52,494 nt of DNA, from NCBI GenBank assembly GCA_041690695.1, contig JBEPVZ010000004.1, positions 1-52,494 of the forward strand. The letters run 5' to 3'. A model generated the notes under the pieces. That model ran no database searches, had not been told where the DNA came from, and saw only the letters and a list, made by a program, of their open reading frames with translations. The stretch is from Candidatus Daviesbacteria bacterium (lineage in GTDB: Bacteria > Patescibacteriota > Microgenomatia > Daviesbacterales > UBA10151). Positions 14,039-19,254 of this stretch are shown piece after piece (within the stretch, counting starts at the first letter, position 1; every line of letters starts with the position of its first letter). Both the position numbers and the translations under genes were made by a program.

Positions 14039-15481
14039 ATGAAAGGTTTAAATTTTAGCCCCTTAATCCTTTTCCTTGGTATCATTGGATTATTATCTTT
14101 AGCCGCTATCTATTACTTCTCCACCCAACTACTTAACCCCACCCAGACCGTTGTTTCATCAACGAATTCCGGAGCCGCAAACTCCTCCACGGTCTTTTAC
14201 GGCGCCAATACGGATATTTCTAATCTGCTTCCCAATTCACCCTTCTATGTCAAAAACTCCAAAGGTCAGGATTTAATCGATATTGCTCATAACTTGGGTA
14301 TCAACTTATTTCGAGTCACGATCATTAATAATCGCTATCCGGATAAAGCTCCGAGTCGGTCGGATTGGGATTATTTATTTAATAAGTTGAATAAAAATCA
14401 TATTCAAGTAATTTTATTACCCGAGTTTTTAAATAGCGCCGAATATACAAAACCCGGCTCCGATGAGTTGTCTGATAACTATTTAAGTTTAATAAAAAGC
14501 TTTATTAATACCAGCGCTATTAATTACAATAATCCGGCCATCTTTGGTTTTGATATCCGTAATGAACCTTCACTAACTTCAAATAATCTCGACAAACTTG
14601 AAGAGGCCGCTCAAATTGTCAAAGATAAATATCCCAATTTAAAAATTACCGTTGGCAGCTGGAAAGTTGAAACTGGCAAGATAGATCCTAAATCTGGTAA
14701 AAAACTTTATAAAGCTAATCCAGCTGACGGCGCAAAATTAGTTAATATTGTTGACTACTACTCACTCCATATTTACGGCTTTGATCGACCATTAAAAGGC
14801 CCCTATCCCGATCCTTATAAATTAACAACCGATTACTTAACTACAGTCAAAAGTTATGCTCAAAATAAGCCAATATTAATAGAAGAGTTCGGAGCTGGTA
14901 ATGGGACCGATATTAATGATCAGGAAACGATTGGTAATCCTAATCTACAAGCGAGAACTTACGAAGGAGTTTATAAAGCGGTTGAGGATATGCATTCCCA
15001 AGGAGTACTCGGGGCACTAGCTTGGCTGCTCTATCCTAGAACTCATGATCCGGATGGCTGGACAATTATTGATGATAACGGAAACCACCTTTATCCAGCT
15101 GCTTACGTTTTACAAAAACATGCCACAGGTAATTCAGATCAATCAGTTGATTTATCTCCGAGTGATTCGGCAAATTATATTTATAGAAATTCTGATAATA
15201 ATAAAACCGTTAATTTAAAGGTTGGCGATACTATTGGCTTAGCTTTAAATTTAGATAAGACTGCGTCCTATATGCTTTTAACCAATAATACTAACGTTTC
15301 AGCGATTGAAGAGCCGATTATGTATTACTCAACCAAACAGTATTATAAAGCCGTTATTAAAATTGTCGGTAAAGGTACGGATAATTTAATTGTCACCACT
15401 CTCCCAAATTGTCAGAATAATTCCGATTGCTCAACAGCCATTATTCCAAAATTTAAGTTAAATATTAGTGTTAAGGATTGA
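14039..15481 (+). CDS. secreted/anchored glycoside hydrolase family 5-like enzyme
   Basis: 480 aa; N-terminal anchor; FDIRNEPS (acid/base NEP), LHIYG (His-x-Tyr) and ILIEEFG (nucleophile) motifs in GH5 order; extra C-terminal domain. Confidence 0.65.
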   Translation: MKGLNFSPLILFLGIIGLLSLAAIYYFSTQLLNPTQTVVSSTNSGAANSSTVFYGANTDISNLLPNSPFYVKNSKGQDLIDIAHNLGINLFRVTIINNRYPDKAPSRSDWDYLFNKLNKNHIQVILLPEFLNSAEYTKPGSDELSDNYLSLIKSFINTSAINYNNPAIFGFDIRNEPSLTSNNLDKLEEAAQIVKDKYPNLKITVGSWKVETGKIDPKSGKKLYKANPADGAKLVNIVDYYSLHIYGFDRPLKGPYPDPYKLTTDYLTTVKSYAQNKPILIEEFGAGNGTDINDQETIGNPNLQARTYEGVYKAVEDMHSQGVLGALAWLLYPRTHDPDGWTIIDDNGNHLYPAAYVLQKHATGNSDQSVDLSPSDSANYIYRNSDNNKTVNLKVGDTIGLALNLDKTASYMLLTNNTNVSAIEEPIMYYSTKQYYKAVIKIVGKGTDNLIVTTLPNCQNNSDCSTAIIPKFKLNISVKD

Positions 15482-15992
15482 CCACTTCTCCGCCACCCAA
15501 AACAGCCGATCCACGAATAATTAGCCGTCCTTGTTCATCCTTACTAGTCGGGCTGTTAGTATGATTTGCAAAACCGCCTAATACCCCAACCACCGAGCTA
15601 CTGACCAACCAAGTCTCAGGCACGATAATCTTAACCCCTCCAAAAACGGCCTCAACATCTAAATAAGCGGTTTTATCTTTACCAATTTTGCAATCAGTTA
15701 AATCAATCTCTATTCCCCCAAAAATTGCTGAAATCTTGCCTTGACTAAAGTTATTAACTTTAACTTTCGGATTAAGACCATTAAAAACTGCTGAGTAAGT
15801 AAAATTATCTTGACTATTATCTTGATTGGCTTGGCTGAAGTTAGGATGACGATTATGACCGGATAAGATCTTAACTCCAACTAAAATAATTATGACCGGC
15901 CAAAAAAAGTGAAAGATATCAAAACCAAAAAAGGCGCTTAAGCCAATGACAACTAAAACTATTCCAATAATTGTTCGTCCAGAGTAATCCAT
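15471..15992 (-). CDS. LiaF-like cell-envelope stress protein
   Basis: 173 aa with two N-terminal TM helices and a C-terminal repetitive beta domain (FGGIEIDL...FGGVKIIVP) resembling the LiaF C-terminal domain. Confidence 0.5.
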   Translation of the reverse strand: MDYSGRTIIGIVLVVIGLSAFFGFDIFHFFWPVIIILVGVKILSGHNRHPNFSQANQDNSQDNFTYSAVFNGLNPKVKVNNFSQGKISAIFGGIEIDLTDCKIGKDKTAYLDVEAVFGGVKIIVPETWLVSSSVVGVLGGFANHTNSPTSKDEQGRLIIRGSAVLGGGEVVNP

Positions 15993-15993
15993 A

Positions 15994-16395
15994 TTAGTAA
16001 TTCTTAAACTTCGGTGTGTAATTAACTAACCAATTATACCAGGGTAAATGATTAAGTGACCACTGTTCAACAATTGGTGAATTAACGACAGTTAAACCTT
16101 TCGTCCAAATAGAAACCAAAACAAAAAGCGCCAGCACCGTAACAATCAAACTTGACCCCGGCCCACGACCTAAGATTATTTGAACACCAGCTAATACCAA
16201 AAGTAGTGGCCAATAGCTAATAATAACCGGCCAGATATTCCAAGATACGATTCCGATGCTGTTAAAAAATAAGGTCATCCCGACAAAAATAAATAGCAAA
16301 CCCCAGACCACATCCAGAGAATCATGTTTCGGCTGGCGGCGAAAATTATGATGCCAATATTTTAAGTCAGGCTCGACGGTTTCAGTATCTTCCAC
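15994..16395 (-). CDS. membrane protein (LiaI/LiaF-type TM region)
   Basis: 133 aa with 4 hydrophobic helices; 1 nt upstream of the LiaF-like gene. Confidence 0.45.
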   Translation of the reverse strand: MEDTETVEPDLKYWHHNFRRQPKHDSLDVVWGLLFIFVGMTLFFNSIGIVSWNIWPVIISYWPLLLVLAGVQIILGRGPGSSLIVTVLALFVLVSIWTKGLTVVNSPIVEQWSLNHLPWYNWLVNYTPKFKNY

Positions 16396-16412: not shown

Positions 16413-18461
16413 TCAGGTAAACCCGAGTCTTTTTAAGCAGAACAAAACAGCTTGATTTAAACTTTGGAAATCTTTTTCAGACAAAGTCTCAGCATCGGTT
16501 TGAAGGTTTGACAATGTTCTAAGACTCTGCAGAAAATAGTTCTCCCTAATAACTAAACCTTCCGGACCTTCTAAGTATTGGTTGACCCGTCTCCTTACAG
16601 CTTCATCAACATAGCCTTGATCTTTGACAGCAGCTTCAATTTCGGGAGCTCTTAGAACTCTCATTCTAGTGCTATGTTTAATGATATCTTCATCCTTAAT
16701 TCGAACGATTGCTTGAGACTTTGGACCGATATACTCTAACGCTTTAGCAGCTTTTGGGGTAGAAACCGTTGTTTTAAAACCAATCTTTTTTGATGTTTCT
16801 CCTAACTCAGTCAAATGACTTTTTTCAAAGTCGATCAGTTCTTGTTGGCATGCTATTAATGTATCTAGAAAGCTCTGATTATTTGCAAAGTCAAAGAAAC
16901 CCTCAAGTAAGTTAGGACTGGTTATAAACGGAACCATCATTGGTCGTGTTAAAACCAGTCTTCTCAGAACTGAAGCTAGTGGCCTTTTTAGATCTAAGGT
17001 CATAGCTTGATTAATCAGTTCTGTCATAGTTAAAGCCTCTCCTTTTGAGCCACTAGCGATCCGGCCATCAAAACCGATCGAGGCTCCGGAAGTTTGGATG
17101 GCGTCCTCAAGACCGGGTAAAGTGTTGACGATGCTAATCGCATCAGTTGTATCACCCGAGCCATCGACAAAAATTAATTTTGGCTGTTGACCTTCTAAAC
17201 TAGTCTGGCTTCGGGAAATTGTGACCAAAGCCACCACGGCCTTAGCAGTCGCGGTTAATGAGCCATTTTTTTCTAAAACCTTAACCCCTCGAGCGTCTAG
17301 AAAGTTAAAACCGGATCCAGCCCACGCAGGATTTAAGCTATCAATCAATGGCCGAGCATTTGGCAAAGTTTCCGATTCAGAAGTAATTTCGACATCAAAT
17401 CCAATCTGACTTAAATCTTGCCTGGTTTGAACAGCCATCGCTGCAAAGATGTTGTAAGGACCTTGGTCTAAAAGTTCCATAGCCGACTTAGTCAACACGC
17501 TCTCTTCTTGTCTCGATCGATAACTGGCAATAATCTGGTCAATCGGAATTTGAGCTTGATCAAGTTGAGCAGCAGTTTCATCTAAGCTTAAACCTAATCG
17601 ATCCGAGAGGCTGACTAGCGCTCCGGCGGCCCTAGGGCCAGTATTGTTATTAATTAAAGTCAGAGGCTCAGATCTATTCAGATTAACTCTTAAAAGATCA
17701 GCCGAAGCTAAAAGCAGGAGGTGACCTAAATGCAGCTCCTTACCCATAGTGACAGCCGCTATAATCGCCGGCGGGACAGAGTGTTCTTGATCGGGATAGA
17801 CTATCGCTCCCATAATTTTTGAAACATCTTTATTAACACCACTGCCATATAACCTAATCGAGGTGGAAGGCCTTAAACGCTTAGTTTTTAAGATCTGTTC
17901 TTCACTCATAGTCTGAACTGAAAAACCGCCCGCAATAACCTCTCCAACAGTTTCCTGGTAAAGTTGACTATTGGCTGATTGATTCTTTTCGGCTAAATTG
18001 ACTCGGTATCGATCCCAAACCAGCTCTTCGACCATATGTAAGTAAGAGATTAAGATCGCCTCAACCGTAGTGGGTTTATCATTTAATAAAATTGTTCCTA
18101 AACTTCCCTCAGGAAAATCAGGAATTAATTCGGCCGGATCGAGTCTAGCTTGAGTGTTAACGGGAATATATAATTTACTCTTTTTGTCATTAACATCCGC
18201 TAGTTGGCAACTTAAACCGGACTGAGCCCGGATACTAATCACTAACCGACCAAATCGTCTAGCCCAACTCTCGGCTTGCTCAGACTGCATGGCTTCTAAC
18301 ATCAGGTGAGTTAAAGCTGTAAAATTCGGCCGCGGCGAATCTAAGCTCACATAAAGAGCTTGTGATCCAGCATCATCAATCAATCGATCCTTGGTATTAT
18401 TCCAAGTCGCTTCGATAATCTGGTCCCGATCATTATCAAAAATTTTAGTAAGTGTTTCCAT
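16413..18461 (-). CDS. divergent class-I aminoacyl-tRNA-synthetase-like protein (ArgRS-like)
   Basis: 682 aa. It has HLGH at residues 244-247, then INNNTGPRAAG where ArgRS has N.GD.G.Q. It has FVDGSGD, and GSKGEALTMTELINQA where ArgRS has the KMSK-equivalent region, and it ends LKRLGFT. Confidence 0.4.
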   Translation of the reverse strand: METLTKIFDNDRDQIIEATWNNTKDRLIDDAGSQALYVSLDSPRPNFTALTHLMLEAMQSEQAESWARRFGRLVISIRAQSGLSCQLADVNDKKSKLYIPVNTQARLDPAELIPDFPEGSLGTILLNDKPTTVEAILISYLHMVEELVWDRYRVNLAEKNQSANSQLYQETVGEVIAGGFSVQTMSEEQILKTKRLRPSTSIRLYGSGVNKDVSKIMGAIVYPDQEHSVPPAIIAAVTMGKELHLGHLLLLASADLLRVNLNRSEPLTLINNNTGPRAAGALVSLSDRLGLSLDETAAQLDQAQIPIDQIIASYRSRQEESVLTKSAMELLDQGPYNIFAAMAVQTRQDLSQIGFDVEITSESETLPNARPLIDSLNPAWAGSGFNFLDARGVKVLEKNGSLTATAKAVVALVTISRSQTSLEGQQPKLIFVDGSGDTTDAISIVNTLPGLEDAIQTSGASIGFDGRIASGSKGEALTMTELINQAMTLDLKRPLASVLRRLVLTRPMMVPFITSPNLLEGFFDFANNQSFLDTLIACQQELIDFEKSHLTELGETSKKIGFKTTVSTPKAAKALEYIGPKSQAIVRIKDEDIIKHSTRMRVLRAPEIEAAVKDQGYVDEAVRRRVNQYLEGPEGLVIRENYFLQSLRTLSNLQTDAETLSEKDFQSLNQAVLFCLKRLGFT

Positions 18462-18472
18462 ATTTTTTCCAC

Positions 18473-18495
18473 AAAAAAACCCCCCTTTCGGGAGG
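18473..18495 (-). terminator. intrinsic terminator 12 nt upstream of the ArgRS-like start codon
   Basis: Minus-strand RNA is CCUCCC-GAAA-GGGGGG followed by UUUUUUU. Confidence 0.6.
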
Positions 18496-18638
18496 CGTCG
18501 AACAAGTGGAACTTGTTTTTTTAGACTGTACTACAGTTTAAATTGCACTACAGCTACGACCTCCCTTTGGAGAGGTTACGTTTATACCAGTAGCTGTTGT
18601 TAAAATTAAAACTATCCATACCAAAGACTATTATACCA
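18473..18638 (-). promoter_or_regulatory. candidate attenuator leader or small RNA (extended -10 promoter to terminator, about 150 nt)
   Basis: TGTGGTATAAT (-10 at 18630-18635), a 21-codon ORF at 18554-18619, nested hairpins, then the terminator. Confidence 0.4.
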
Positions 18639-18651
18639 CATCAATTCATGA

Positions 18652-19254
18652 TCAGCGACTAACTAATAAAAAGCTAGTTAAATTGTCAGGATTATCTTGT
18701 AAATTTTGATCAATAATTTCCAAGTTATATAAACCTGCTAAAGTTTTTGGACCTAAAATAGCAGTTACTTTTGAGAGCTGATTTTTGGATAAAGCCTGAG
18801 CGGCTCTGGCCGTATCAATTAAATCACCCTTTCCACTAATTAATTTAAGACTCGGATACTTCTTAACTAAAGTCGCTTGGCACTGTTTAAAAACTTGGGG
18901 ATGAGCCATAATCGTCGTGATCTTTGACCGATCAACTTCAGGCCGTTTCATTAAATAATGTTGGATCGGTAATTTAAGTTCGCTAACAATTTTAAACTTA
19001 TAATTGGCCATGGCATGAATTGATTCATCAACAATTCCGCCGACAGAATTATGAATCGCAAATAGACCATAATCAATATTTCCCAAGTTTAAATTACTTA
19101 AGACCCTTTCAGAGGTATAGAGATAACTAATTTTATATTTTGAAATCTTGGCAGAGTCTAAATAACGAATGATCATCTGCTCATTAAAACTCCCAACTCC
19201 ACCTTGAATTCCAAAAGTTAAAAAGCGCTTATTAGCTAGCATGCCCCAGATCAT
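18652..19254 (-). CDS. pheA: prephenate dehydratase catalytic (PDT) domain protein without ACT domain
   Basis: 200 aa; FGIQGGVGSFNEQ near the N-terminus and N.TSFLLVS (the TRF-motif position) at the C-terminus. Confidence 0.55.
   Translation of the reverse strand: MIWGMLANKRFLTFGIQGGVGSFNEQMIIRYLDSAKISKYKISYLYTSERVLSNLNLGNIDYGLFAIHNSVGGIVDESIHAMANYKFKIVSELKLPIQHYLMKRPEVDRSKITTIMAHPQVFKQCQATLVKKYPSLKLISGKGDLIDTARAAQALSKNQLSKVTAILGPKTLAGLYNLEIIDQNLQDNPDNLTSFLLVSR

Follow-up and report, generated by a model that had tools for sequence, protein, structure and literature searches.

The gene for a 682-amino acid (aa) protein resembling arginyl-tRNA synthetase (ArgRS) in Candidatus Daviesbacteria bacterium is preceded by a leader that is probably a ribosome-mediated leader-peptide transcription attenuator, acting on a leaderless transcript and, most likely, sensing Trp-tRNA. 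The DNA analyzed, hereafter the window, comprises 52,494 nucleotides (nt; GCA_041690695.1, contig JBEPVZ010000004.1, positions 1 to 52,494), and the leader occupies positions 18473-18640 of the minus strand, on which all features of the locus are read. Judged from its sequence, the leader belongs to a conserved family, representing a known kind of switch, in ultra-small bacteria, the Microgenomates of the candidate phyla radiation (CPR). A previous interpretation of the letters alone (here termed the sequence-only reading) had proposed an attenuator responding to arginine at this place, and all of the sequence features that it listed (promoter, open reading frame (ORF), stems, segments 1-4 and U7) were found where it had located them; only the spacing from the U-tract to the start of the 682-aa gene (ATG at 18461) turned out to be 11 nt rather than 12 nt.

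A conserved leader upstream of the ArgRS-like gene

The leader begins with a predicted extended -10 promoter element, TGTGGTATAAT (18640-18630; -10 hexamer at 18635-18630), which has no good -35 box. The ATG (18619-18617) of a leader ORF of 21 codons plus UAG, MDSFNFNNSYWYKRNLSKGRS (18619-18554; stop codon at 18556-18554), is located 10 nt past the -10 box, and the transcript should therefore be leaderless or nearly so. The sole Trp codon of this ORF, UGG (18587-18589), is the proposed sensing codon, and the ORF overlaps a long hairpin composed of a basal (outer) helix and an apical hairpin. The 5' strand of the basal helix, ACAGCUAC (18597-18590), would be covered by a ribosome decoding UGG, which would open 10 base pairs (bp), and the 3' strand, GUAGCUGU (18557-18550), contains the leader stop UAG. 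This outer stem clamps the apical hairpin CCUCUCC-AAA-GGGAGG (18575-18560), whose 5' strand is segment 1 (CCUCUCC, 18575-18569, assigned from the sequence and the minimum free energy (MFE) fold). Segment 2 (GGGAGG, 18565-18560) together with a CGU toehold makes up the putative 5' strand of the antiterminator (18565-18556; duplex z = -3.4 against shuffles). An A-rich spacer, which includes a small hairpin (AACAAGU-UCC-ACUUGUU, 18517-18501), separates these elements from ACG plus segment 3 (18498-18490; CCUCCC itself at 18495-18490), which would serve both as 3' strand of the antiterminator and as 5' strand of the terminator. After a GAAA loop, segment 4 (GGGGGG, 18485-18480) and U7 (18479-18473) provide the terminator 3' strand and U-tract (18485-18473).

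The 164-nt leader from 18462 to 18625 has an MFE of -48.7 kcal/mol (z = -3.35), and none of 200 dinucleotide shuffles folded as well; its MFE fold combines the terminator with the 1:2 hairpin held by the outer stem. In agreement with this fold, a consensus scan called an intrinsic terminator at 18496-18479, and it found no promoter between this terminator and the 682-aa gene, the only promoter-like sites being ones that start inside the coding sequence. It was also observed that the apical hairpin (18560-18575) and the terminator hairpin (18480-18495) are near-copies of each other (CCUCUCC/GGGAGG versus CCUCCC/GGGGGG). As a consequence, the "antiterminated" fold at equilibrium is a long-range double helix of 1:4 plus 2:3, and the same applies to several relatives.

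To place the leader in a wider context, 41 loci encoding relatives of the 682-aa protein were collected, those with titles being metagenome-assembled genomes (MAGs) of Collierbacteria and Woesebacteria; when genome contigs were searched, a single-protein query gave no match and an alignment-based query was successful. They provided 22 leaders, 17 of them non-redundant, from Microgenomates-type metagenomes and MAGs. Every relative with enough upstream DNA (the 17 non-redundant leaders) shows the same layout, i.e. a sigma-70 promoter (often TTGACA, 17-18 nt, TATAAT), an ATG 7-11 nt past the -10 box, an ORF of 15-30 codons, a long hairpin, an A-rich spacer, and a hairpin with U6-U8 followed 8-22 nt later by the ATG of the gene. 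This recurrence is the best argument that the arrangement is not fortuitous. The terminator hairpins range from -8 to -25 kcal/mol and are followed by their U-tract at this distance from the gene in all leaders. This layout, and the lack of a promoter after the terminator, support the earlier prediction that the 682-aa gene depends on read-through. An nhmmer profile built from 15 leaders detected one copy per locus, always at the same position and only once in the 52-kb window, and it also recovered the Collierbacteria leaders that had been left out of its construction. Since the upstream neighbors vary among loci (MgtE/RHH, citrate-lyase genes, argS, a tRNA), the leader element belongs to the downstream gene.

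These data bear on the view that there is no switch at all, and that the hairpin is a plain terminator of the upstream prephenate-dehydratase gene or that the element is a stand-alone small RNA (sRNA) of about 150 nt, as the sequence-only reading had also contemplated, the 682-aa gene being expressed by other means. The terminated product would indeed be a stable RNA of about 147 nt, and attenuator RNAs of other bacteria can act in trans (PMC6614838), which we counted in favor of an sRNA. Nevertheless, the upstream genes differ in every lineage and the element always abuts the same gene family, once per locus and 8-22 nt from the gene start. Moreover, the element comes with a conserved promoter of its own, the U-tract and the ATG have none between them, and the conserved antiterminator complementarity described below would have no role in a plain terminator. 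We thus regard the absence of a switch as extremely improbable.

Two of the MAGs carrying the leader (loci L015 and L018) are labeled "uncultured Gammaproteobacteria" and "uncultured Pseudomonadales"; the locus is otherwise restricted to Microgenomates and their leaders are nearly identical to CPR ones, so that binning or labeling errors are the likely explanation.

Antiterminator pairing and ribosome-masked folding

Every lineage carries, after the apical loop, a strand complementary to the terminator 5' strand and to the bases immediately preceding it. This complementary strand comprises segment 2 and, in most leaders, also the 3' strand of the basal helix. The pairs differ from one lineage to another: GGGAGG:CCUCCC in the window and in L001, GGUGGUUUUUAUGUGCU:AGCAUAAGGAACCGCC in L013, GGCGGGUUUUGUC:GACAAAACUCGCU in L022, UUGGCUA:UAGCCAA in L009, and others too. 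Such lineage-specific sequences indicate that the pairing has been maintained by compensatory change. When 15 leaders aligned by MAFFT were analyzed with RNAalifold, only a weak consensus was obtained for the terminator, with no compensatory pairs, a result that is uninformative because the MAFFT alignment shifts the helices of different lineages by 1 nt relative to each other; for this reason, duplex energies were calculated per sequence in place of alignment-based covariation, and the 17 non-redundant leaders were each compared with 1000 dinucleotide shuffles of the upstream strand. The antiterminator duplex had z < -1.65 in 16 of the 17 leaders, with a mean z of -3.8 and a Stouffer Z of -15.6 (-2.2 in a control with reversed target), and although the phylogenetic relatedness of the leaders, a point that weighs against our interpretation, makes this combined Z overstate their independence, the lineage-specific sequences still carry the argument. 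Hence, the 1:2 / 2:3 / 3:4 logic proposed by the sequence-only reading is conserved, with covariation, in the 17 non-redundant relatives.

The modeled folds add one modification to that scheme, since in most relatives the predicted anti-antiterminator is the outer stem with its 3' strand rather than segment 1 alone, and the predicted antiterminator is longer than 2:3. The antiterminator excludes the terminator and is sequestered by a strand that the ORF overlaps, which is the arrangement expected of leader-peptide attenuators.

The effect of a ribosome on these alternative folds was calculated on RNA that was cut where the terminator stem ends and masked from the 5' end through the ninth nt after the A-site codon (an assumed footprint). 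The partition function, which is an equilibrium calculation, then gave the probability P(terminator) that the terminator helix forms. For the window leader, P(terminator) was 0.92 with no ribosome, fell to 0.13 with UGG in the A site (position W) and 0.12 at W+1, and was 0.95 from codon 16 on. The median values of the 22 leaders were 0.96 with no ribosome, at most 0.1 from W-3 to W+3, 0.57 at W+4, 0.87 at W+5, and at least 0.94 later. With the ribosome at the stop codon the median was 0.96, in agreement with the earlier suggestion that a ribosome reaching this codon allows termination. The interval of read-through ends 2-6 codons past W in 15 of 16 leaders, and the distance from W to the stop codon varies between 6 and 20 codons. 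A ribosome at UGG opens 8-19 bp of the basal helix in 16 of 17 leaders, and the partners released are the strand that becomes the antiterminator. This refines the earlier picture, in which a paused ribosome masks segment 1 and favors 2:3: the UGG codon is located 11-15 nt upstream of segment 1, and a ribosome there would not mask this segment itself.

The leader ORF and the sensed signal

An ORF of 15-30 codons is present in all 22 leaders; in six loci its start was set by hand at an ATG 7-10 nt past the -10 box, replacing in-frame ATGs that overlapped the box. The distance from ATG to UGG is 24, 27, 30, 33 or 45 nt, always a multiple of 3 and with no in-frame stop, and close relatives show synonymous changes in the third codon position (UAU/UAC, CGU/CGC, UUU/UUC and UUA/UUG). 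With regard to initiation, a TATAAT-like box ends 6-8 nt ahead of the start codon in 14 of the 51 genes in the window (e.g. at the starts 14039, 16395, 19633, 23957, 27350, 33323, 33371 and 50233) and only 8 have a motif resembling a Shine-Dalgarno sequence, which suggests that leaderless mRNAs are normal for first genes in this genome. The conservation of the ORF in frame agrees with the translation predicted by the sequence-only reading, and the leader ORF is probably translated.

An alternative would be a switch made of RNA only (a riboswitch, or a leader that binds a protein or a tRNA), in which UGG and the helices form the ligand site and the ORF is incidental. The fact that the leader folds significantly better than its shuffles and that UGG stands in or beside a conserved helix could be accommodated by such a device. 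By contrast, the ATG holds a fixed place at the transcript 5' end, the frame between ATG and UGG is kept through indels of multiples of 3 with no in-frame stop, the stop codon is always at or beyond segment 1, and there is no conserved unpaired core besides UGG. In addition, the Infernal/Rfam scan that had been recommended for the leader returned no family match, either at the gathering threshold or at E <= 10, and this includes the covariance models RF00513 (Trp_leader; gathering threshold or E <= 10) and RF00230 (T-box leader; E <= 10). On these grounds, an RNA-only switch has a slim chance of being correct.

The only invariant codon of the ORF is the single UGG, kept in 16 of the 17 non-redundant leaders. 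Position W+1, immediately after it, is occupied by His, Tyr or Phe in each of the 17, and Arg or Lys, which interchange, is found at W+2 or W+3 in 16 of them, L002 having Lys at W+5 instead. The sequence-only reading had chosen Arg as the sensed amino acid, and a pause at one or more Arg codons near segment 1, such as the window CGU (18580-18578) located three codons downstream of UGG, would match the ArgRS-like product, whose fold supports this name. Arg codons do occur between W-2 and W+3 in 15 of 17 leaders, and the only leader lacking W, that of L022, carries CGC where W+2 would be and heads an operon with canonical argS as its last gene. However, Arg codons are not universal among the relatives, since L008 and L020 have none and show only Lys at those positions; they differ in position and type (CGU, CGC, CGA, AGG), the window CGU is not conserved, and the ArgRS-like paralog coexists with a canonical argS in L009 and L022. 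All these observations leave Arg sensing very improbable and direct attention to UGG.

The content of the operons was then considered. A gene of the HIT family directly follows the ArgRS-like gene in every relative with enough sequence except L007, where tblastn gave no HIT match, and the genes after HIT often encode trpS, tyrS, argS, a PepT-like M20 peptidase or a YbaK-like deacylase. At eight loci trpS is within the leader-controlled operon, and tyrS or argS at others, which fits control by a tRNA-charging signal. A link between the residue after W and the synthetase of the operon (Y with tyrS, H/F with trpS) was looked for among these loci; it was not clean and was dropped.

Trp-tRNA is the most economical signal given that UGG is the only codon for Trp, that trpS is present in the operon of eight relatives with tyrS or argS in others, that attenuators are known upstream of trpS, leuS and pheST (PMC1262725), and that Trp, being a rare amino acid, makes the response of a regulatory codon sharper (PMC1183508). 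According to the model that we favor, transcription would start a few nt before the leader ATG, and the nascent leader would fold into the long hairpin (basal helix plus apical 1:2), thereby sequestering the strand able to pair with the 5' half of the terminator. If the ORF is untranslated, or is translated to its stop codon, the terminator (3:4 plus U7) would form and RNA polymerase would halt 11 nt before the ArgRS-like gene. A ribosome stalled at the single UGG, most likely by scarcity of charged tRNA-Trp, would keep the basal helix open, and the freed 3' strand together with segment 2 could pair with segment 3 as antiterminator, leading to read-through into the gene. In this way the stalled ribosome would prevent the clamp from closing and expose a toehold for the antiterminator.

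The same RNA switch could be coupled to a different sensor if the nascent peptide itself arrested translation. The motif W-[H/Y/F]-x(0-1)-[R/K] would then stall the ribosome 1-4 codons past W through the exit tunnel or the peptidyl-transferase center, either intrinsically or in response to a small molecule such as free Trp, a drug, or a product of the ArgRS-like/HIT enzymes. The aromatic residue or His at W+1 in 17/17 leaders and the Arg or Lys at W+2 or W+3 in 16/17 are those expected of such a motif, A-site positions W+1 to W+4 cover segment 1 and leave segment 2 free, and the W-less leader of L022 retains Y-R-H at the equivalent positions. On the other hand, the codons after UGG covary with the 3' strand of the basal helix (GGCAU:AUGCU/GUGCC versus GGUAC:GUACC), so that RNA constraints could explain much of the apparent conservation of the peptide. 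The fact that trpS is often part of the operon argues for tRNA charging as the signal, no sensor is simpler than a single Trp codon, and to our knowledge there is no arrest motif resembling this one. We therefore consider peptide arrest unlikely. A bolder proposal, to which we also assign a rather low probability, is that the W-[H/Y/F]-[R/K] leader peptide represents a new ribosome-arrest module in which the Trp codon, free Trp or a metabolite of the controlled enzymes switches the terminator, and that the orphan ArgRS-like protein, with its unmatched N-terminal domain, and its obligatory HIT partner constitute a novel, Microgenomates-specific aminoacylation or Trp-stress response.

Several other observations weigh against an attenuator that senses Trp-tRNA. 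Owing to the gap between UGG and segment 1, the apical 1:2 hairpin would stay unmasked when UGG occupies the ribosomal A site; read-through then needs strand displacement from the opened basal helix, a process modeled here at equilibrium only. At equilibrium, L001, L002, L003, L013 and L014 adopt the antiterminated fold even without a ribosome, and the Collierbacteria-type terminators (about -25 kcal/mol) always win. Only one UGG is present, in 16 of the 17 leaders, inside the modeled interval of read-through and upstream of segment 1, and classical leaders carry at least two regulatory codons (PMC1183508). Conservation of the residues that follow W (His/Tyr/Phe, then Arg/Lys) exceeds what simple Trp-codon sensing would require; their codons also pair in, and covary with, the basal helix, and constraints on RNA and peptide are therefore inseparable here. 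The leader of L022 (2814-2964), MNILLVNSRKQYRHLA, has Gln at the position of W and is the sole W-less one; it keeps Y-R-H at the same positions and belongs to the only operon with a canonical argS after the HIT gene, and the Gln may reflect a switch of the sensed codon or simply a loss (n = 1). The operon of the window has neither trpS nor a HIT gene. Finally, a search for RNA sequencing runs holding the stretch found none, the run search matching one DNA run only, probably that of the source sample. Even with these points taken into account, attenuation in response to Trp-tRNA is the reading that we consider probable.

The predicted target gene and comparison with known systems

The gene proposed to be under the control of the leader (16413-18461, minus strand) encodes the 682-aa protein, an orphan class-I synthetase paralog of ArgRS-like fold with an HLGH motif of the HIGH type and an unmatched N-terminal domain of about 230 aa. 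The protein matched no family of Pfam or NCBIfam, and in particular it did not match the ArgRS profiles (Pfam tRNA-synt_1d and TIGR00456 argS), which do recognize the canonical argS at L009 and L022. Among 5.8 billion protein clusters only 15 relatives were found, nearly all from one set of metagenome runs. Their alignment shows a T-x-G-K-E-x-H-x-G-H motif of the HIGH type, NNN(T/S)GPR and an ASG(S/T)xGEA block, HxGH being invariant. An AlphaFold (AF2) model (predicted local distance difference test, pLDDT, 84.6) was compared with known structures by Foldseek, and the best matches were the ArgRS structures 1f7u (yeast; E 1.4e-8), 3fnr, 1bs2 and 4oby (E from 1e-8 to 2e-7 over the four), with CysRS and MetRS coming next. 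The "ArgRS-like" label of the sequence-only reading thus holds at the level of fold (1f7u) and finds no counterpart in Pfam or NCBIfam. According to the model, the protein has a class Ia Rossmann core with the HIGH motif and an overall fold of the ArgRS type, and the family is an uncharacterized, highly diverged ArgRS paralog. Because a canonical argS (TIGR00456, 416 bits) adjoins the paralog at L009 and L022, the paralog need not act on arginine.

The N-terminal residues, about 230 in number (17772-18461, minus strand, in the window), form a conserved domain with invariant W66, H142, W149 and R203-x-Y-G-S. In many relatives this domain is a separate gene (272-973 in L007, 1123-1803 in L008, 3325-3996 in L009, 821-1489 in L011 and 2974-3651 in L022). 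Its model has a pLDDT of 90, and yet Foldseek gave no significant match in the PDB (best E about 1) and there was no match in Pfam. In the Woesebacteria MAG of L020 (2971-4698; the same as L023) the N-domain gene is split into ORFs of 93 and 91 aa, the core has only 386 aa and the leader is intact; this broken gene is either a decaying copy or the result of assembly errors.

In the window, the ArgRS-like gene is followed instead by two genes for LiaF-like membrane proteins (15471-16395), and no HIT gene, trpS, tyrS or argS was found anywhere in the 52 kb. The product of the gene upstream of the leader (18652-19254, minus strand) is a 200-aa prephenate dehydratase that has the catalytic domain and lacks the ACT regulatory one; 12 nt separate the stop codon of this gene from the extended -10 box of the leader, with no terminator between them.

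CPR/Patescibacteria are uncultured and almost nothing is known about their gene regulation, and an attenuator that can be read from sequence offers a clue to the signal of an orphan operon; in the paper library searched there was no paper linking leader-peptide attenuation with these bacteria. The mechanism itself is textbook knowledge, and the value of the element lies mainly in that it would tie an unannotated, diverged ArgRS paralog and its HIT partner to tRNA-Trp charging or, more generally, to translation stress. It would also mean that attenuation of the classical leader-peptide type works on transcripts that are leaderless and have just one regulatory codon.

Some known systems share part of these features. 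The T-box with a UGG specifier (the trpS type of Firmicutes) likewise links low charged tRNA-Trp to antitermination before synthetase-related genes; the leader described here has no T-box sequence, Stem I or specifier-loop architecture and no Rfam match, and sensing would use the ribosome. TnaC and other arrest peptides resemble it in the short leader peptide, the single critical Trp and the conserved neighboring residues. TnaC controls Rho-dependent termination and stalls at its own stop codon in response to free Trp, whereas an intrinsic terminator plus an antiterminator are present here, with no sequence similarity.

Classical attenuators have been predicted and reviewed upstream of Streptomyces trpS/trpS2 and leuS and of gamma-proteobacterial pheST (PMC1262725). 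They have in common with the present family a ribosome-mediated attenuation of synthetase genes, to which the trpS in the leader-controlled operon of eight relatives corresponds; they differ from it in that the constant regulated genes are here the orphan ArgRS-like paralog and HIT, in the CPR/Microgenomates host, and in the single Trp codon. In mycobacteria, leaderless polycysteine short ORFs are Cys-responsive attenuators (bioRxiv 10.1101/834739). Both kinds of leader ORF start at the transcript 5' end or adjacent to it, with no Shine-Dalgarno sequence, the mycobacterial ones containing runs of Cys codons and the one described here a single Trp codon plus a canonical hairpin/U-tract terminator. 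The polycysteine attenuators are not known to involve an obvious intrinsic terminator.

The enterobacterial trpL leader (RF00513) provides another comparison. There is no similarity to it in sequence or by covariance model; trpL has two tandem Trp codons inside segment 1, whereas the single one of the Microgenomates leaders is 11-15 nt upstream of that segment, in or next to the basal helix, on a leaderless transcript that has no Shine-Dalgarno sequence and whose target is not a Trp biosynthesis gene. Nevertheless, both have a short ORF containing Trp codon(s), and in both the anti-antiterminator, antiterminator and terminator hairpins exclude one another, the leader stop codon is near segment 2, and an intrinsic terminator directly precedes the first structural gene.

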